Shown here: positions 4,562 to 24,327 of the stretch, piece after piece | How the letters are laid out: each line of letters opens with the position of its first letter | How positions within the stretch are numbered: the stretch's first letter is position 1 | Source of the DNA: Candidatus Jordarchaeales archaeon | Lineage (GTDB): Archaea; Asgardarchaeota; Jordiarchaeia; Jordiarchaeales; Freyrarchaeaceae | NCBI GenBank assembly: GCA_038858525.1 | Contig: JAWCFL010000011.1 | Location: forward strand, 25,284 to 57,283 | Direction: 5' to 3' | DNA: 32,000 nt | Made by a program: the position numbers and the translations under genes | Notes under the pieces: model-generated | What the model saw: the letters and a program-made list of their open reading frames with translations, nothing else | Database searches by the model: none | Told to the model about the DNA's origin: nothing

Positions 4562-6097
4562 ATGAAGGCCAAGCGCGCGCTTATAAGCGTGTGGGATAAG
4601 AGAGGCATACTTGAGTTAGCTAAAGCACTTCATGAAATGGGTATTGAGATAGTTGCAACCGAGGGTACTGCTAAGGCGCTCGAAGGAGTGCCTGTGAGGA
4701 GGATATCAGAACTAACAGGGTTTACCGAGATGCTAGACGGCAGAGTCAAGAGCCTGCACCCTCACGTTTACAGTGCTATTCTGGCTAGAAATAAAGAGGA
4801 AGATTTGAGGCAACTCAGGAAGATGGGGATAGAGCCCATAGACATCGTAATTGTTAACCTTTACCCTTTCATGGAAGTGGCAGCAAAAAATGAGGAACTA
4901 GACTTACTCGTGGAGAACATTGATATTGGAGGAGTGAGCCTGGTCAGGGCCGCCGCGAAAAACTTCGAGAGAGTTACTGTTGTTGTTGACCCGGAGGACT
5001 ACAATTTGATTCTTGAAGAATTGAAGAAGTATGGAGGAGTGCGAGAGGAAACTAGGAGAAGACTTGCGGTAAAGGCGTTCGCGTATACTTCAGGGTATGA
5101 CGATGCCATAACGCAGGCGCTCTCCAGCAGGCTCCTAGGGAAGGGAGAAATGCCGGACATACTTACTTTAAGGTTCGCTAAAGTACAGGACTTAAGGTAT
5201 GGAGAAAACCCGCATCAGAAAGCTGCGCTCTACAAGGAAATCGCCTCAATTGTTAGTGGAGCAGTTGTCGACGCTGTGCAACTTCAAGGCAAGGAGCTCT
5301 CGTTTAACAACATTCTTGACCTAAACGCAGCACTCGAGATTATAAGGGAGTTTTCAAAACCAATGGCGGTTGTAATTAAGCACACGAACCCGTGCGGAGC
5401 AGCAACAGGTGAAACGATACGTGATGCTTACGTGAGGGCTAGGGAAAGCGACCCTGTATCGGCATACGGTAGCATAGTGGGCTTAAACGGGAAAGTAGAT
5501 CTTGATACGGCAAGGGAGATTACTTCAACATTCGTCGAGGCGGTCATTGCACCCGGCTATACAGAAGACGCTTTAGAGGAGCTTAAAAAGAAGGAGAGCT
5601 TAAGGGTGCTTATGCTGCCCACCATTAAAAGGCGGGAGGCAGGCATCGACTTCAGAAGGGTAGTCGGCGGGTTACTTGTCCAAAGTGAAGACTTGACTGA
5701 GGAAGACTTTCCAGATTTTAAAGTTGTTAGTGCCAGAGAGCCAACGGAGAGAGAAGTCCAATCGGCATTGTTCGGATGGAGGATAGTCAAACACGTGAAG
5801 TCGAACGCAATAGTGATCGCCAATGGGGAGTGGGTTGTAGGAGTAGGAGCAGGACAGATGAGCAGGGTGGACTCAGCGAAGATCGCGCTAGAGAAAGCGG
5901 GAGGCAGAGCAAAGGGAGGAGTGCTTGCGTCAGACGGCTTCATTCCCTTCAGGGATACTGTTGACGCCGCCGCCGAGGCAGGGGTAACATGTATTATACA
6001 GCCTGGTGGTTCCAAAAGAGACGAAGAAGTTATAGAGGCGGCAAACGAGCACGGTATGGCCATGATCCATACAGGCATAAGGCACTTCAAGCACTAG
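4562..6097 (+). CDS. purH: Bifunctional AICAR formyltransferase/IMP cyclohydrolase
   Basis: RALISVWDKRGILELAKAL, TEGTAKAL, DGRVKSLHPHVY, DLRYGENPHQKAALY, VIKHTNPCGAA, FIPFRDTVDAAAEAGVTCIIQPGGSKRD. Confidence 0.95.
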   Translation: MKAKRALISVWDKRGILELAKALHEMGIEIVATEGTAKALEGVPVRRISELTGFTEMLDGRVKSLHPHVYSAILARNKEEDLRQLRKMGIEPIDIVIVNLYPFMEVAAKNEELDLLVENIDIGGVSLVRAAAKNFERVTVVVDPEDYNLILEELKKYGGVREETRRRLAVKAFAYTSGYDDAITQALSSRLLGKGEMPDILTLRFAKVQDLRYGENPHQKAALYKEIASIVSGAVVDAVQLQGKELSFNNILDLNAALEIIREFSKPMAVVIKHTNPCGAATGETIRDAYVRARESDPVSAYGSIVGLNGKVDLDTAREITSTFVEAVIAPGYTEDALEELKKKESLRVLMLPTIKRREAGIDFRRVVGGLLVQSEDLTEEDFPDFKVVSAREPTEREVQSALFGWRIVKHVKSNAIVIANGEWVVGVGAGQMSRVDSAKIALEKAGGRAKGGVLASDGFIPFRDTVDAAAEAGVTCIIQPGGSKRDEEVIEAANEHGMAMIHTGIRHFKH

Positions 6098-17753: not shown

Positions 17754-18800
17754 CTACTCTGGAACCTCCTCGATGCATGGTAAAGCATCCACAAGGGCTC
17801 CATCGATCACAGGGCTTCCTCCATCCTTGAACCTGTTAGCAGCAACGAACACTGCCTGGTTGCAAAGCATACGAAGGTCACGCCCCACACCCATAGACTT
17901 TCGTTTCAAAGCAGGAACCGCATCCTCGGTGAAGGGGTGTATTTCAAAAGAGGACTCGTCAAACTCCTTAAGGCGGCCGCTAGCCCAATAAAGCCTCCTG
18001 CCGATAAATTCCCTGACGCCGCGCTCATCCAATGGTTCAAGCTCGATCTCCCAACATCTATCATAGAGGTGAGGGACGCCTTCCTTGAGACCTATAGCAT
18101 GAGTCTTCGTTCCAGTCAAAACGAGCATGCATATCATCTGATCCTCGTCGCCCTCCTCCGCAGCCCGCTTAATCGCATTAATCTCCCCCTCGTCAAGCTT
18201 CATTTTTTTAAGCTTAAGGAACCGCTTGAATTCATCTTCTTCTTCAACTACGAACCGCTTGGCGTCCTTCAGCGTTAAGTCGCCGACCTCCTTGATCTTA
18301 ATAAAGACCTCAACGTCGTTCTCGCCGAAATCATCTATGAATATCAACGTAAGATATCCACTCAAAAGATATCGAAGCATGATATCATACTTGACCAGCA
18401 CGTAAATGTCTTCAGCATTGGCCGATCGAGAATATGGAACCCTAAGTTTCTTCGCCAAAACCTCAGCCATCTGCCTCACATACAGCTTACTCTGAGACAC
18501 CATCACGGGATAGAAACGATACTCAGGGTCACCCTGCCTAGAAAGCTCTAGAAGGTCCCCGTAAATCAGCTCGAGAAGCGTCGTTTTACCCATGCCGGGA
18601 AACTCGCTCGTTATCAGTATATGCCGCTCCCTAGCCTTAATGTAATCATCGATCTCAACTATTACATCATGAGGAGCCACGAACAGTTCAGGGTCGCTTA
18701 ACCTCACACTCGAAAACGGGTTCCACCTCCACCCGAAGAAGGAGTAGTATGCATTTCTAATCTCAGCCACCGAAGGGTAGAGACGCCCAACAGCACCCAT
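17754..18800 (-). CDS. AAA+ ATPase, ExeA/Orc-like architecture, with charged insertion
   Basis: YYSFFGWRWNPF N-terminal motif, Walker A SEFPGMGKTTLLE, Walker B LTLIFIDDF, sensor-1-like ICMLVLTGT. Start ATG 18800 (or GTG 18809) preferred; the ORF track start 18989 adds an unlikely hydrophobic leader. Confidence 0.8.
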   Translation of the reverse strand: MGAVGRLYPSVAEIRNAYYSFFGWRWNPFSSVRLSDPELFVAPHDVIVEIDDYIKARERHILITSEFPGMGKTTLLELIYGDLLELSRQGDPEYRFYPVMVSQSKLYVRQMAEVLAKKLRVPYSRSANAEDIYVLVKYDIMLRYLLSGYLTLIFIDDFGENDVEVFIKIKEVGDLTLKDAKRFVVEEEDEFKRFLKLKKMKLDEGEINAIKRAAEEGDEDQMICMLVLTGTKTHAIGLKEGVPHLYDRCWEIELEPLDERGVREFIGRRLYWASGRLKEFDESSFEIHPFTEDAVPALKRKSMGVGRDLRMLCNQAVFVAANRFKDGGSPVIDGALVDALPCIEEVPE

Positions 18801-19183
18801 ACGCTCCACACAACCACCTCCGACATCCGATATCGACAGCCGAAAAAGATACCAGAATCCAGATATCAAAACCAGAAAACGATACGCAAAATCTAAAGAG
18901 AAAAAACATCGTAATACGTAGAGAACACCAACAGAATACGAGAAATACGCGGGAAGGCCAGCTGCGATTGAAAAGGAACACGAGCTCAAGAAACACTAAG
19001 AGAGCTAAACGAGAACCAAGAGCGACGTAGGTTTACAAAAAAGTATACCCACAGGGAGCCTAAAGCAGAAGAGAACATCAAACGAAAAGGATAAATACCA
19101 GAAATATGGAGGGAATACCTCCATAAATAAGAAAGACGAAGAGCACAACAGTATTAGTTACTTTGGAACATGTGTTCCAAAAA

Positions 19184-19546
19184 TCACGACTTTTTGCTCT
19201 CCTTAAGCGCAGCATAAGAAGTAAGGAGGTCCACCCAAGATTTGAGAAAACCCTTGGCGAACCCCGCCCTCTCAGGAAGGTTTGAGGAGAAAACTTGCGC
19301 CAGAGAATCCAGATACTTCGCGTATCTCCTAGCGTCTTCTGCTGAGAGACCATTCATTAGTGAAACTATTAGGGAAATCTGGTTAAGTTTTTCAAGACCT
19401 GCAAGCCAACCTCGCCAGGCCAGCTCAACCCATTTATCTTTAAACCGTGATTCCTCCAAAGCTGCTTTAGCGATTTCAATGGCCTTCTTGTGATCGCCTT
19501 CAGCCAATGCTTTAACGAATTCTTCAACTTCACTCAAAACAACCAC
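19184..19546 (-). CDS. Hypothetical small helical protein
   Basis: 120 aa ORF with a regular amphipathic composition; stop codon directly abuts a palindrome. Confidence 0.5.
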   Translation of the reverse strand: MVVLSEVEEFVKALAEGDHKKAIEIAKAALEESRFKDKWVELAWRGWLAGLEKLNQISLIVSLMNGLSAEDARRYAKYLDSLAQVFSSNLPERAGFAKGFLKSWVDLLTSYAALKESKKS

Positions 19547-19692: not shown

Positions 19693-19713
19693 ACCCCTTC
19701 GTTTCTACTGTAA
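19693..19713 (-). promoter_or_regulatory. ORB-like element A
   Basis: Minus strand TTACAGTAGAAACGAAGGGGT, close to the archaeal Orc1/Cdc6 origin recognition box pattern (TTCCAsTGGAAAC-AAA-GGGGT). Confidence 0.75.
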
Positions 19714-19848
19714 CAGGTAAACTTATAAATCACTAAGCTAAACTTGAGCTTTTTATACAAAAAACTTATATCTTCTAAGTCCCAAGTATTTTGGGGGAGA
19801 GTTTTAATTTTAAAAGTTTAATTAATAAACTTAAGAGAGTTTTACTTT

Positions 19849-19870
19849 TTCCAGTTGAAACAGTGGGGTG
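19849..19870 (+). promoter_or_regulatory. ORB-like element B
   Basis: TTCCAGTTGAAACAGTGGGGTG followed by more G-rich sequence (GGTGGG). Confidence 0.75.
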
Positions 19871-19905
19871 GGTGGGTTTCCTTCTTTTATTTTGGAACAC
19901 ATGTT

Positions 19906-20193
19906 CTAAATGTTTTCTTCCTCTACAACTACAAAAACTCGGCACTTAACAATATCCTTGTATTTCTTGAAGAAAGCATTGAAGACTTCTGCGTGTTCAT
20001 CTTGAACTAGTATTGCGCTATCTCCTGCCCTGTCGCAACCATAGAAGTCCACAAGGCCTAATTTTTGCCCCTTTAATGTTTTTCCTTCCTTGTTTTTCCA
20101 TTTGTAGGCGTATCCGAAGAGTTCCTTGAAGAATTTCACCCTGCGCGGGTTACTCGAATGTTCCGCCTTTACGTCGTAGACGTATATTCTCAA
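19906..20193 (-). CDS. Hypothetical 95 aa protein, possible ferredoxin-like (Cas2-like?) fold
   Basis: MRIYVYDVKAEHSSNPRRVKFFKELF ... GLVDFYG ... DSAILVQDEHAEVFNAFFKKYKD ... CRVFVVVEE gives a beta-alpha-beta-beta-alpha-beta pattern. Confidence 0.55.
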   Translation of the reverse strand: MRIYVYDVKAEHSSNPRRVKFFKELFGYAYKWKNKEGKTLKGQKLGLVDFYGCDRAGDSAILVQDEHAEVFNAFFKKYKDIVKCRVFVVVEEENI

Positions 20194-20271
20194 AGTTTTC
20201 CCTCCATCAATACGTTGCAGCCATTCGTCTTTGAAGACTTGTATTTTCGTTGTCTTTTTGTGGTCAATAGC

Positions 20272-20638
20272 TTAACATGTTAACACAGTGTTAACATAGC
20301 CGTTTTGAGTTGTTAACACGTTGTTTTTGCTATGAATAATGCAAATTATCTTAGTTAAAAATTGACCCCTTTATTTCAACTGCAACATTTTTTTCGATAT
20401 TTTTCTCTTTCCTTTTCGTGTTAACACGGTTTGTTAACCTTTATTTAGAAAAAACAATGGAAAATTGTTTTTTTGAAGATTTACCGCTTTTTATTTCAAT
20501 TTTTCTTGTTAATACTTTTTAAAAATTCTCTTTGTCAAAAGATGGCGTATTTTTTCCTTTTTTTGTTCTTTTCGTGTTCGTCACGTTAACAAATTTACAC
20601 ATTATTTCTCTTTGTTTTTAACGCGTTGTTTTGTTAAC
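20272..20638. repeat. Cluster of seven GTTAAC-core palindromic repeats (consensus about tGTTAACac)
   Basis: GTTAAC at 20279, 20290, 20312, 20420, 20433, 20585 and 20633; includes GTTAACAC-A-GTGTTAAC (20279-20295) and GTGTTAACAC (20418-20427). Confidence 0.8.
20365..20385 (-). promoter_or_regulatory. ORB-like element C
   Basis: Minus strand TTGCAGTTGAAATAAAGGGGT. Confidence 0.7.
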
Positions 20639-20968
20639 GTATTGCGTGTTTTAGGTGAACCATTTCCCCCTTTAGAAAATAACGTTTTTTTGCTGGCTTC
20701 AAAGTTTTTATGGACTCTTCTTTTAGCTTATCGTAGAAAGCGGCATATGTTCTGTTTTTCAGAGGGATTGAGCTGCGGGTTAATGTTCAAGTGTAAAGTG
20801 TTTGGTGTTGGCTCCTGAAAGCCCCTGAGGTTGTATTTTTGTGGGTGGAATGCATTAGTCTTGCAGTTTGATTATTCTGCTTTTTATGTGTTGCTGGTTG
20901 GAGTTGTTAAGGGTGTTTTTCGGGTGTAATAGATAGACATATATATTTACGCGTGTAAGTTTAACTTA

Positions 20969-20986
20969 CCTCGTTTCCAGTGGAAG
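20969..20986 (-). promoter_or_regulatory. ORB-like element D, abutting the wHTH gene start
   Basis: Minus strand CTTCCACTGGAAACGAGG. Confidence 0.65.
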
Positions 20987-21466
20987 GTGTGCTGGTTGGG
21001 GGCGAAGCGCTACAAGATCGAGATAGTTGATGCCGAGCGCAACGTGAAGGCTACTTTGACTATTGAGGGTGATGTTTCCCCCCAGCTGGCGGCATCTCTT
21101 GTGGAGGAGCTTTCCGAGAAACTGTCTGAGGGCGGAGTGGCGGAGGAGGCACCTGCTGGGTTTGAGGCTTCCGAGGTTGACGCCGAGCTCCCCGACACTG
21201 AAAGTCTCTCGATGAAGGATAAAATTGAACTTGTACTGCTAAAGTATTTCCAGTATGGGTGGTTTACTTCTGGTGATGTTCATGAGCAGTTTACTCGGGT
21301 TTTTGGTGAGACCTCTCTAAGCGTGGTTTCAACATACTTGGCGAGGCTGCGTAGTGAGGGGCTCTTGGAGCGTAAGGGAACGAAAAAGCAGTATTATTAC
21401 CGGCTTAAGGAAAGTGGCCGGCTCAGGGCTTCTAGGCTTAGCGAGCTTCTTCAGCTTCTTCCGTGA
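20987..21466 (+). CDS. Winged-helix domain protein, origin-adjacent
   Basis: SMKDKIELVLLKYFQYGWFTSGDVHEQFTRVFGETSLSVVSTYLARLRSEGLLERKGTKKQYYYRL wHTH; GTG start. Confidence 0.75.
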   Translation: MCWLGAKRYKIEIVDAERNVKATLTIEGDVSPQLAASLVEELSEKLSEGGVAEEAPAGFEASEVDAELPDTESLSMKDKIELVLLKYFQYGWFTSGDVHEQFTRVFGETSLSVVSTYLARLRSEGLLERKGTKKQYYYRLKESGRLRASRLSELLQLLP

Positions 21467-21481
21467 AGTTGCTTCTCGACC

Positions 21482-21500
21482 GAGTGTGTTTCCAGTGTAA
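21482..21500 (-). promoter_or_regulatory. ORB-like element E (degenerate)
   Basis: Minus strand TTACACTGGAAACACACTC. Confidence 0.5.
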
Positions 21501-21537
21501 TATTAATGGATATATTTGCCGGAAGTTAAGCATTATT

Positions 21538-21558
21538 CACCTTTGTTTCCAGTGGAAG
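21538..21558 (-). promoter_or_regulatory. ORB-like element F, just upstream of orc1/cdc6
   Basis: Minus strand CTTCCACTGGAAACAAAGGTG. Confidence 0.7.
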
Positions 21559-21566
21559 TAGGAAAA

Positions 21567-22826
21567 GTGGTGGTTTGTTTGGGTGAACGTTCTCTTGAGG
21601 CGCTTTTTGAAAGGTTTCTCTCAACCAAGATCTTCAAGAATCGTGACGTGTTGAGTCATACTTATGTTCCTGACGAGTTACCTCACCGTGACGAGCAAAT
21701 AGAGAAGGTTGGGTTAATTCTCGCCTCAGCTCTTAAGGGCGGCACTCCTTCGAACGTTTTCATTTATGGAAAGACGGGTACAGGTAAGACTGCTGTCGTA
21801 CGCTTCGTTCTTAAGCACCTTGTTGCTAAGTGTCACGAGCTGAATGTGCCTGCTCCCTTACCCGCTTACCTTAACTGTAGAATTGTAAACACTAATTATC
21901 GTGTTCTGGCTCGGCTTTGCTCCTACTTAGGTGTCGAGGTTCCCTTTACGGGTCTGCCTACCGATGAGGTTTACAGTAGGTTTAGGGACGTGCTTGATAG
22001 CAGGGACGTGTTGATGATAATCGTGCTCGACGAGGTTGAACGGTTAGTTGAGCGGGACGGTAGTAACGTCCTCTACGACCTAACTAGGATGAATCACACT
22101 GTTCTTAAGCGGGCGCGCGTCAGCATAATAGGCATCACGAATGACTTAACGTTCAAGGATAACCTTGATCCTAGAGTGCTGAGTAGCTTAGGGGAAGAAG
22201 AGCTAGTTTTCCCGCCTTACACTGCCGCTGAGCTCAGGGACATTCTTTGGCAGAGGGCTCAGCTTGCCTTCAGAGAGGGCGCTCTTGAAGGTCCAGGAGT
22301 CATCAATCTTTGCGCAGCTATAGCCGCTAAGGAGCACGGGGACGCCCGTCGCGCCCTAGACTTGCTTAGAGTCGCTGGCGAGATAGCTGAGCGGGAGGGC
22401 GCAGAAAAGGTTTCCGAAGAGCATGTGAGAGCCGCTCAACACGTCATCGAGCGAGATCACCTGGTTGAGGCACTGAGAACTCTCCCTATGCATTCTAAGC
22501 TTGTACTTTACACTATTTTTGAGTTGACTAAGCAGGGAAGGGGTAAAGCTAGGACCGGGGACATATACAACTACTACTTGAACGTTTGCAGGCGTCTACA
22601 TGTTGAGCCGTTAACTCAGAGGCGGGTTAGTAGCCTTATAAATGAGCTTGACATGCTGGGTGTCGTTGCGGCTCATCTTAAAAGCAGAGGACGCCATGGG
22701 CTCTCGAAAGAAGTGAAACTCAACGTTTCAGTAAATCAAGTCAAACAAGTCTTAGAGGAGGATTCATTCATAAAGAAGCTTTCATCCAGTGACTCGTCTC
22801 CTCTCTTTGAGGCTAGTCCCCAGTAA
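21567..22826 (+). CDS. cdc6: Orc1/Cdc6 replication initiator
   Basis: SLEALFERFLSTKIFKNRDVLSHTYVPDELPHRDEQIE, Walker A YGKTGTGKTAVV, Walker B IIVLDEVERL, C-terminal winged helix. ORF track start 21516 (TTG) lies in the promoter/ORB; a GTG at 21567/21570 or TTG at 21579 is more likely. Confidence 0.93.
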   Translation: MVVCLGERSLEALFERFLSTKIFKNRDVLSHTYVPDELPHRDEQIEKVGLILASALKGGTPSNVFIYGKTGTGKTAVVRFVLKHLVAKCHELNVPAPLPAYLNCRIVNTNYRVLARLCSYLGVEVPFTGLPTDEVYSRFRDVLDSRDVLMIIVLDEVERLVERDGSNVLYDLTRMNHTVLKRARVSIIGITNDLTFKDNLDPRVLSSLGEEELVFPPYTAAELRDILWQRAQLAFREGALEGPGVINLCAAIAAKEHGDARRALDLLRVAGEIAEREGAEKVSEEHVRAAQHVIERDHLVEALRTLPMHSKLVLYTIFELTKQGRGKARTGDIYNYYLNVCRRLHVEPLTQRRVSSLINELDMLGVVAAHLKSRGRHGLSKEVKLNVSVNQVKQVLEEDSFIKKLSSSDSSPLFEASPQ

Positions 22827-24327
22827 AGTCCAGCTGAGCCACCCAGAAGTCCTTCAAATTAACGATGTACGGTTTTCCGGGTGTTGGTGTTAAGCCCATG
22901 GCTTTCTGATAATCTGTTTGGTCCTGAAATGTCCCTGAGTTTATCACGGTCACACCGCGATAATTTTCTTGCCCATTCACGTGAAGGTGGCCACAATGAA
23001 AAATATCTGGGACCTTCTCGATAACTAAGAGGTCCATTGGTTCAGGGGACAATGGCGTTGAACCATAGACTGGCGCTAAATGTCTTCCTCTAAGAAGCTC
23101 TATCATTGCTTTTTCCGGGTAGTGTGAGTCTATTGATAGAGCTGTCATCACGTCATTCAGCGGGTCTCCATGAAAGCATAACACCTCAACGCCGTGTATT
23201 CTAAAGTATGCTGGGTCTCCAAGCATTTCGACTCCTATTTCGTAAAGTGGTTCACTGTAATCTTTAGGTATGGCTGGCTGGGGTAATGCTTGCCTAGTTG
23301 CATCGTGCCCGCCCGGTATAGCTATAGTCTTAACGTAGTCTGGTACGTTTTCAAGATGCCTCGCTGCTATTTCGTATTGCGCGTAGAGTTCCTCGACGAC
23401 GAGCTCCTTCTCTTGATTCGGGTAGACTCCGACTCCATCCACTATGTCTCCTCCAATTACCAAGTATTTAACTTGTTTTGCCAAGCTTCTGCTTTTCTCG
23501 TCCCCTCTTTTGCCCTGAAGCCATTCTAGGAACCTTGTAAATGGTTTCTCCATGAATTTCTTGCTGCCGAAATGCGTGTCTGAAATGAAGACCGCCATTA
23601 TGGGTTCATCAGCCCTCCTAGGTTTGTGATCGAATGGTATGTCGGGCCAAATGATGTTATCAGCCACAACGAACGCTCCATTACTCCTACCTTCCACGCA
23701 GACTACTTGGTCCAGCATAAGGTGTCGCGCCTTGTCTGTTAAGTTGCTCGGGATTAGAACGCTGACCACACCGTCAAGATCCTCAAGTTCTATGACCATG
23801 GAGCCACTTCGAGCCCTCGAAATTTCCCTGACTAATCCTATTAACTTGACTTCCTCGGCTCTGCCTACTTCACATGTCCTACATATCCCTTTTATGTCCC
23901 CCCTTTTCAGAAAGAGGTTGCTGAGACGCATATATCTATCCTTGAAGTAATTAACAAAGTCGTCTAGGGACCCACTGGTTCCTATCATCTTTGTTGGATC
24001 CATCACCACTTCAAAATCTTCATCTACTTCCCTAGCGGTTAGGGCCGGCTTAGGCTTCAAGCCTGGAGGAATTATACTTTGTGCTTCCTCGCTTTTAGGA
24101 GCTTTTACATTAGTTGCTTCTCGGGGCTCCTCTTTTTCAATTAGCTTCCTAATATCTTCCTCTGTTAGGACAAGTGTTCCCTCTGTGGCCTTAACCTTAC
24201 TTATGACTAAGGAAGCTAAGCTAGGCTCAAGTGCCAATATGACGTCTAGCGCTCTGGGAGTAACTTGCAGTCCGGCTTCAAGCAACTCCTTAACTGTTCT
24301 CTTTGCAACCTGCGATGTCCCTATCAA
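22813..24327 (-). CDS. polB: Archaeal DNA polymerase II (PolD) small subunit DP1
   Basis: OB-fold region then calcineurin-like phosphoesterase: VFISDTHFGSKKF, IGGDIVDGVGVYPNQ, IPGGHDATRQALPQP, HCGHLHVNG; C-terminus overlaps cdc6 3' end. Confidence 0.93.
   Translation of the reverse strand: MIGTSQVAKRTVKELLEAGLQVTPRALDVILALEPSLASLVISKVKATEGTLVLTEEDIRKLIEKEEPREATNVKAPKSEEAQSIIPPGLKPKPALTAREVDEDFEVVMDPTKMIGTSGSLDDFVNYFKDRYMRLSNLFLKRGDIKGICRTCEVGRAEEVKLIGLVREISRARSGSMVIELEDLDGVVSVLIPSNLTDKARHLMLDQVVCVEGRSNGAFVVADNIIWPDIPFDHKPRRADEPIMAVFISDTHFGSKKFMEKPFTRFLEWLQGKRGDEKSRSLAKQVKYLVIGGDIVDGVGVYPNQEKELVVEELYAQYEIAARHLENVPDYVKTIAIPGGHDATRQALPQPAIPKDYSEPLYEIGVEMLGDPAYFRIHGVEVLCFHGDPLNDVMTALSIDSHYPEKAMIELLRGRHLAPVYGSTPLSPEPMDLLVIEKVPDIFHCGHLHVNGQENYRGVTVINSGTFQDQTDYQKAMGLTPTPGKPYIVNLKDFWVAQLDFTGD

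Follow-up and report, generated by a model that had tools for sequence, protein, structure and literature searches.

The region from 19.69 to 21.56 kb of a 32-kb stretch of DNA from Candidatus Jordarchaeales archaeon (contig JAWCFL010000011.1; the whole stretch is called the window here) is predicted to be the orc1-linked chromosomal replication origin, of the oriC1 type, of this Jordarchaeia archaeon, with a probability that we put at roughly 0.8. The sequence-level features of an Orc1-type origin are all found in this region, namely, an initiator gene, clustered origin recognition boxes (ORBs), a minus-strand and a plus-strand ORB on either side of a candidate duplex-unwinding element (DUE), and conservation of this arrangement in related genomes. 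A preliminary description of the window had proposed an archaeal origin beside orc1/cdc6, and the proposal is supported by the orc1 equivalog, the full ORBs, the inverted pair around an AT-rich DUE, the mini-ORBs, and their conservation.

Origin recognition boxes upstream of orc1

Six ORB-like elements had been listed, and all of them are present, with positions and strands as reported. We took a plus-strand ORB to be one that reads from the dyad to the G-string in the 5' to 3' direction, an assumption about polarity that draws partly on the Ori-Finder-Arch preprint and partly on what is generally known of Orc1-DNA structures. Three of the elements are full ORBs, in which the dyad core is followed 3 to 4 bases on by the string GGGGT. 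ORB A (TACAGTAGAAACGAAGGGGTG; 19693-19713, minus strand) has its G-string pointing leftward, away from the candidate DUE, while ORB B (TTCCAGTTGAAACAGTGGGGTG; 19849-19870, plus strand) is inverted relative to ORB A, with the G-string pointing rightward, and matches the core without mismatches. The third full ORB, ORB C (TGCAGTTGAAATAAAGGGGTC; 20365-20385, minus strand), is the one nearest a gene for a winged-helix protein. The remaining elements have the 13-bp core only and lack GGGGT, consistent with the earlier assignment of this string to A, B, and C; they are the mini-ORB box D (TTCCACTGGAAACGAGGT; 20969-20986, minus strand), box E (TACACTGGAAACACACTCG; 21482-21500, minus strand), which is the weakest element, and the mini-ORB box F (TTCCACTGGAAACAAAGGTGA; 21538-21558, minus strand; 19.9 bits).

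The core TTCCASTKGAAAC, allowing up to two mismatches, has 12 matches in the window, with palindromic sites counted twice, compared to 3.1 expected, and none of 100 dinucleotide-preserving shuffles reaches 12. Counted as distinct sites, six cores fall into 1.9 kb and two into the remainder of the window (30 kb). Trained on nine sites taken solely from distant genomes (loci L005, L006, and L081), a weight matrix ranks B, A, and C as the top three sites of the window (27.3, 26.9, and 24.0 bits, respectively), where the best site in 300 shuffled windows scores 20.4 bits. Such a matrix search had been suggested in the preliminary description, which also named ORB-like motifs of equal density elsewhere as an observation that would speak against an origin; core counts and matrix agree instead on clustering at this locus. 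A seventh candidate ORB at 20484-20500 was dropped, being conserved neither in L002 nor in L003. The consensus ORB of the clade is TTCCAGTnGAAAYnnnGGGGT, and the same motif occurs upstream of orc1 in many of the other archaeal loci compared.

An AT-rich spacer flanked by inverted ORBs and a palindrome

ORBs A and B enclose a candidate DUE of 135 bp (19714-19848), identified by its nearest-neighbour stability and having a GC content of 25%, against 46% for the window. The inverted pair with outward-facing G-strings around about 135 bp of very AT-rich DNA, as it had been described, is therewith borne out. When the 60-bp stretches of the window are ranked by stability, two of the lowest four fall into the spacer. 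The orthologous spacers measure 131 to 162 bp in all six genomes, each being more AT-rich than its own locus.

The palindrome GAACAnnTGTTC has exactly two copies in the 32-kb window, one on each side of the unit formed by ORB A, the DUE, and ORB B. The left copy (GAACATGTGTTC; 19166-19177), an exact match, is found some 0.5 kb to the left of ORB A and shortly beyond the 3' end of a gene for a 120-residue protein. The right copy (GAACACATGTTC; 19895-19906) lies 25 bp right of ORB B, and its last base overlaps the stop codon of a gene for a 95-residue protein. Two matches each are also found in L002 (3651 and 4360), L003 (3737 and 4448), and L081 (5019 and 5410). The left copy is orthologous to the first of these in L002 and L003, and the copy right of ORB B to those at 4360 in L002, at 4448 in L003 (with one mismatch), and at 5019 in L081. 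A DNA-binding protein that acts as a dimer may recognise the palindrome.

The initiator gene and its neighbour

The gene orc1/cdc6 (21567-22826, plus strand) encodes a protein with the Pfam domains Cdc6_C, Cdc6_lid, and AAA, which matches the NCBIfam ORC1-type equivalog NF001625 with 544.7 bits, the cutoff being 501. The open reading frame (ORF) is open from a TTG at 21516, and the alignment with the L006 Orc1 and the tblastn coverage make the GTG at 21567 or 21570 the likely start, in preference to this ORF-maximal TTG. With a start at 21567 or 21570, box F and a TATA-like box fall upstream of the gene.

The small subunit of DNA polymerase D, DP1 (22813-24327, minus strand), is recognised by the Pfam domains DNA_pol_E_B and Metallophos. 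The preliminary description had placed orc1/cdc6 and DP1 immediately to the right of the boxes; the Pfam matches confirm both identities, but DP1 is on the minus strand, making the two genes convergent, not co-oriented. The convergent orc1/DP1 pairing is also found in L081, L084, and L086.

Conservation in related genomes

The Orc1 protein is 95% identical to those of two Candidatus Jordarchaeia/Jordarchaeum metagenome-assembled genomes (MAGs), 87% identical to that of a third MAG, and 60 to 66% identical to those of J. madagascariense, LC30, and Atabeyarchaeum deiterrae. At the nucleotide level, L002 is 82% and L003 68 to 74% identical to the window, both being collinear with it through the whole region. 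The ORBs are among the best-kept non-coding blocks in the alignments, retaining position and orientation where much of the other non-coding DNA has diverged. ORB A is conserved in L002, L003, L005, L006, and L081, and ORBs B and C in all relatives compared. The conservation spans genomes with Orc1 identities from 95% down to 60%, including two complete Asgard chromosomes: that of Freyarchaeum deiterrae (L081; CP147778, the locus lying at about 1.64 of 3.58 Mb) and that of Atabeyarchaeum-2 (L006; CP147780, the locus lying at about 0.640 of 2.757 Mb).

A triplet of full ORBs in the orientation (-)(+)(-) is found upstream of orc1 in LC30 (at 4682, 4855, and 5028), in Atabeyarchaeum-2 (at 4714, 4889, and 5063), and in Freyarchaeum deiterrae (at 4778, 4948, and 5700). 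The mirror form of this triplet is found in the Bathyarchaeia (L009 to L077), where 21 loci hold 48 full ORBs in the 16.7 kb of intergenic DNA between the winged-helix gene and orc1, compared to a single one in 245 kb elsewhere.

The J. madagascariense locus (L004) was left out of the triplet comparison; it is rearranged and offers 1.3 kb of upstream DNA. Within its first 1,400 bases, orc1 is directly preceded, on its own strand, by a homologue of the window's 120-residue protein gene (19184-19546). One F-type mini-ORB is present at 1205, and neither the ORB triplet nor the winged-helix gene occurs in the available 1.3 kb.

Two similar putative promoter modules bracketed by ORB-like boxes

Boxes D, E, and F belong to two modules on the plus strand that are predicted from their sequence to be promoters. 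P1 (20913-20986), the putative promoter module of the winged-helix gene, consists of a degenerate box, GTAATA, the TATA-like ATATAT, and mini-ORB D; P2 (21482-21558), that of orc1, consists of box E, GTAATA, ATATAT, and mini-ORB F. About 70 bp of P1, ending in D, and the 77 bp from E to F align nearly without gaps in four genomes, and both modules follow the same order of a box, an invariant GTAATA, seven bases, an invariant ATATAT, 22 to 29 bases, and a mini-ORB. The block GTAATAGATAGACATATATA in P1 is the best-conserved non-coding block; it does not vary between the window, L001, and L002 and differs by one change in L003. Box F is conserved in L001 to L004. The likeness of P1 and P2 suggests that a promoter was duplicated and that the winged-helix gene and orc1 are regulated together.

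Box D lies about 22 bp and box F about 29 bp downstream of the respective TATA-like box. If ATATAT(TT) is read as a TATA box, D and F are placed at about the transcription starts of the winged-helix gene and of orc1. The two boxes are thus probably Orc1 operators through which both genes would be autoregulated. All three small boxes had been counted as elements of the origin itself; their cores are where they had been reported, but for D and F a role as promoter operators is the better reading, and E is poorly conserved.

An embedded gene and a cluster of TGTTAAY repeats

The interval to the right of ORB A is not purely intergenic, the preliminary description having missed two genes in it. One of these is the 95-residue protein gene (19906-20193, minus strand), which lies between ORB B and ORB C and is restricted to the Jordarchaeia/Freyarchaeia lineage. 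Among 5.8 billion proteins, its product is represented by four clusters, each of them from genomes of the Jordarchaeales type. The counterpart in Freyarchaeum (L081 5037-5267, minus strand) is 55% identical and occupies the same place, and no counterpart is found in the Atabeyarchaeia loci, where the cores of B and C are spaced 173 to 174 bp apart. The AlphaFold 2 model of the protein is a low-confidence alpha/beta sandwich (pLDDT, 67) without a significant match in the PDB.

A cluster of TGTTAAC/TGTTAAY repeats (20278-20639) brackets ORB C and provides candidate sites for a binding factor. It holds 7 of the 16 GTTAAC (HpaI) sites of the window, and the segment from the 95-residue to the winged-helix protein gene (20194-20986) has 12 TGTTAAY, where shuffles of the segment predict 0.5. 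The TGTTAAC cluster is retained in L001, L002 (4741-5047), and L003 (4823-5145), and in Freyarchaeum TGTTAAT variants flank ORB C (L081 5573-5715), whereas the Atabeyarchaeia loci have no such repeats. The repeats therefore co-occur with the 95-residue protein gene. A precedent for non-ORB origin motifs bound by another protein is the ucm/UBP pair of Sulfolobus (PMC12141716).

Strand composition

Raw GC skew in the window tracks gene orientation; as gene orientation dominates it, GC skew alone was rejected as an uninformative origin marker at this scale. When the skew of each gene is regressed on strand and origin side, GC and AT skew are both lower to the right (t = -3.2 and -4.2, respectively). 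Strand-corrected AT and purine (RY) skew have their best inter-gene breakpoint at 19726, inside the A-B spacer, based on 31 genes in 32 kb. This switch in purine and AT skew is only suggestive as a sign of an origin.

Proposed mechanism and alternative explanations

In Sulfolobus islandicus, firing requires a 130-bp ORB3-DUE-ORB2 unit, each of the boxes individually, and Orc1-1 (Dhanaraju 2025, PMC12141716), with one Orc1-1 monomer per box in a fixed polarity and ATP-bound Orc1-1 recruiting MCM (PMC12141716). The arrangement ORB(-)/DUE/ORB(+) has been described as the minimal functional archaeal oriC (Ori-Finder-Arch preprint, 2026). By analogy with Sulfolobus oriC1, Orc1 monomers would bind ORB A and ORB B of the window in opposite polarity, head-to-head across the spacer, and the bound Orc1 would load MCM on the 135 bp of AT-rich DNA between them, where bidirectional replication would begin. 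ORB C would be a conserved third Orc1 site, and Orc1 on D and F would exert negative feedback on the winged-helix gene and orc1, tying their expression to the level of the initiator. Orc1 binding, melting of the A-B spacer, and autoregulation are steps that we infer by analogy.

Several observations weigh against this origin or against parts of it. Two ordinary promoter-type AT-rich stretches of the window are as unstable as the candidate DUE, and box E is ORB-like in the window and L002 only, its counterparts in L003 and L001 being degenerate. In Freyarchaeum deiterrae, orc1 has a promoter that lacks an F-type box, so that autoregulation through F may be genus-specific. GC skew, taken alone, shows no break at the locus and has its best breakpoint at about 13.7 kb, off the origin; over 32 kb, the skew test is of low power, with gene content as a confounder. 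Since Freyarchaeum has a gene for at least one further Cdc6-related protein, this origin need not be the sole one. Some archaea reportedly replicate without using their Orc1 origin, both dormant origins and origin-independent growth being said to be documented.

The skew, the additional Cdc6-related gene of Freyarchaeum, and these reports from other archaea would fit a locus that is a genuine origin but dormant or minor, with the main replication proceeding from another origin or independently of origins. We consider this unlikely: the strong purifying conservation of ORBs, spacing, and linked genes over deep divergence argues for continued use, and bidirectional replication is indicated by the cumulative GC skew that has been published for complete Freyarchaeia and Atabeyarchaeia genomes, the genome paper and its supplements giving no origin coordinates (PMC11291895).

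The position of D and F at the predicted transcription starts of two paralogous promoters, and the presence of ORB C together with the TGTTAAY repeats where the 95-residue protein gene has its promoter region, could also mean that the boxes are transcriptional operators only, serving orc1, the winged-helix gene, and the 95-residue protein gene through Orc1 or an Orc1-2-like paralogue, while replication starts elsewhere; an Orc1 paralogue acting as a global regulator has been reported in Sulfolobus (Orc1-2). That the boxes are operators and nothing else is nevertheless highly unlikely. No promoter-proximal placement explains the inverted A/B pair with its G-strings outward around the most AT-rich DNA. 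This arrangement is the defining pattern of an origin and is conserved, with a spacing of 131 to 162 bp, across classes and in the Bathyarchaeia, and the orc1 gene of the window encodes the conserved equivalog of the initiator.

Mobile elements of archaea frequently bring along an orc1/cdc6 accompanied by ORB-like repeats, and the 95-residue protein gene is lineage-restricted, but it is extremely improbable that the origin is that of an integrated plasmid or virus with its own orc1/cdc6: no tRNA was found in the window, no integrase domain among its genes, and no attachment-type repeats; the neighbours are housekeeping genes (for FolD, PurH, PheRS, a wyosine radical-SAM enzyme, an IF-2B-family protein, HypF, riboflavin kinase, and PhoU); the synteny HypF...orc1-DP1-PhoU is retained over more than 13 kb in Freyarchaeum; and Orc1 is 50 to 60% identical to the products of orc1 genes adjoining DP1 or ORBs in hundreds of archaeal genomes.

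A winged-helix gene linked to the origin across phyla

The second gene missed in the preliminary description, located between the ORB triplet and orc1 (20987-21466, plus strand; an alternative TTG start at 20996 is possible), encodes a 159-residue winged-helix protein and is linked to the origin across phyla. In the structure model, a beta-hairpin and a helix at the N-terminus are joined by an acidic linker to a C-terminal winged helix that is modelled with confidence, and the best structural matches are generic winged helices of the PadR, MarR, ArsR, and F-93 types. Clustering of this two-domain family gives 389 representatives when the identity threshold is 50% and 3117 clusters when it is 90%; Asgard lineages, Bathyarchaeia, and Nitrososphaerales all contribute members. 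No Pfam model covers the family, and the annotation of its members is at most "ArsR family regulator".

In 83 loci collected for their orc1 alone, the family profile places a member no more than about 1.5 kb upstream of orc1 in 36. Apart from the rearranged L004, all loci of Jordarchaeia, Freyarchaeia, Atabeyarchaeia, and Borrarchaeum have one, and so do all 27 Bathyarchaeia loci whose upstream DNA extends for at least about 0.9 kb. None is detected at the orc1 loci of Sulfolobales, Desulfurococcales, Methanomethylicota, Caldarchaeales, Hadarchaeia, Thermoplasmatota, and Thermococci. Examples of members in other genomes are those in L006 (5334-5816), L013 (5018-5458, minus strand), L084 (4001-4438), and L086 (4001-4441), the last two being further loci found via the winged-helix protein; L084 is labelled Promethearchaeota.

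In the Jordarchaeia, Freyarchaeia, and Atabeyarchaeia, the winged-helix gene comes first and orc1 downstream of it, whereas in the Bathyarchaeia, L084, and L086 the order is DP1, a convergent orc1, the ORBs, and then the winged-helix gene, divergent from orc1. Viewed from the winged-helix gene, the ORB triplet of the latter loci is (-)(+)(-), as in the window, indicating that the unit of three ORBs and winged-helix gene is conserved while orc1 switches sides. A minus-strand ORB about 150 to 260 bp upstream of the winged-helix gene is likewise found in the Atabeyarchaeia, the Bathyarchaeia, L084, and L086. A single inversion of the block of ORBs and winged-helix gene would explain the difference in gene order between the Jordarchaeia/Atabeyarchaeia and the Bathyarchaeia. 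The duplicated promoter module fits this history, because orc1 would have needed a new promoter after the inversion.

Two more specific assignments of the 159-residue protein were rejected at the level of profiles. As a free-standing winged-helix domain (WHD) of the Orc1 type that reads mini-ORBs, it would be expected to resemble the Orc1 WHD, and hhalign against an alignment of that domain returns a probability of 0.3%. As an accessory protein of the WhiP/Cdt1 or Orc1-WHD type, it matches the Pfam families Cdc6_C (E value, 0.15) and MCM_C (E value, about 1e-3), both below the cutoff. The size of the family (3117 clusters without a Pfam model), the conserved unit with the ORB triplet, and the paralogous ORB-bracketed promoters lead us to suggest, tentatively and at less than even odds, that the family could be a dedicated origin-associated factor, be it a co-initiator, a protein of origin architecture, or a regulator of orc1.

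Comparison with described archaeal origins

The locus is closest to Sulfolobus oriC1 and, going by what is generally known of it, to the Pyrococcus cdc6-DP1 origin. The Pyrococcus oriC is a cdc6-DP1-DP2 locus with long ORBs and mini-ORBs. As there, the origin in the window lies by orc1/cdc6 and DP1 and combines full ORBs with 13-bp mini-ORBs, sharing the core TTCCAGTGGAAAC; unlike there, DP1 is convergent and not co-operonic, and the mini-ORBs stand in two paralogous promoters.

With the oriC1 of Sulfolobus/Saccharolobus (Robinson 2004; PMC12141716) the locus shares three full ORBs, two of them inverted around a DUE of about 130 bp, an adjacent orc1, and additional non-ORB motifs, which are ucm/UBP in Sulfolobus and TGTTAAY and GAACAnnTGTTC here. 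It differs in that no ucm was identified in it and its additional motifs are outside the A-B spacer, in the protein-coding gene between B and C, and in the second gene between the triplet and orc1; the Sulfolobus origin, moreover, is known by more than its sequence. The Bathyarchaeia loci have the same ORB consensus, three ORBs followed by the winged-helix gene, and an orc1 adjoining a convergent DP1, but in them the ORBs stand between orc1 and the winged-helix gene, which are divergent.

The Ori-Finder-Arch preprint includes Promethearchaeota in its bulk oriC predictions. The locus resembles its CDC6-type oriCs, having ORB-bearing intergenic DNA by the initiator gene (its Type I) as well as an ORB(-)/DUE/ORB(+) layout, whereas neither the winged-helix gene linked to the origin, nor the gene embedded in it, nor the paralogous promoters are described in that work. 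The origin is thus ordinary in kind, in the style of a textbook example, and what is specific to the lineage is the embedded 95-residue protein gene, the ORB-bracketed paralogous promoters, and the linkage to the winged-helix gene.

Other features near the origin

A conserved protein of 350 to 410 residues is encoded just left of the origin in the window (17754-18989, minus strand) and in Freyarchaeum (L081 1622-2683, minus strand). It has the Walker A motif GMGKTT and only sub-threshold P-loop matches (NB-ARC, E value 0.0045; AAA_22, E value 0.22), and it may be a divergent ATPase of the STAND or AAA type. The N-terminal 70 residues or so of the window ORF are probably non-coding. Between this gene and that of the 120-residue protein, the segment 18790-19160 is 12% T and 66% purine, with an AT skew of up to 0.47; it is moderately conserved in L002 and L003, and the minus-strand open frames in it are short hydrophobic ORFs only. 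No relevant tandem repeats are present in the window, and an Rfam scan of the 0.8-kb gene-free stretch returned no family at the gathering score.

The origin region is much longer in Freyarchaeum deiterrae (CP147778) than in the window, with about 2.3 kb without a called gene directly left of ORB A (L081 2684-5036; 22 to 41% GC per 100 bp). In the Atabeyarchaeia-type loci, a gene for a ParA/MinD-like ATPase (L005 3288-4070 and L006 3163-3948, both minus strand) and a small conserved gene are found about 0.3 to 1.5 kb left of ORB A, which would put a partition-type ATPase beside the Atabeyarchaeia-type origin.

Significance

Asgard archaea are the closest known relatives of eukaryotes, and the literature that we searched yielded no ORB-level description of any Asgard origin. 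Judged by the conserved boxes and the initiator gene, these Asgard lineages appear to retain the sequence-specific ORB/Orc1 system of other archaea. The locus supplies defined DNA elements and two unstudied linked proteins for recombinant biochemistry that does not depend on culture. The linkage of the winged-helix gene to the origin across Bathyarchaeia and Asgard archaea is the part that specialists might not expect; if the family is indeed an origin factor, the conserved oriC1 module of those lineages that are nearest to eukaryotes would gain a second, previously unnoticed protein.

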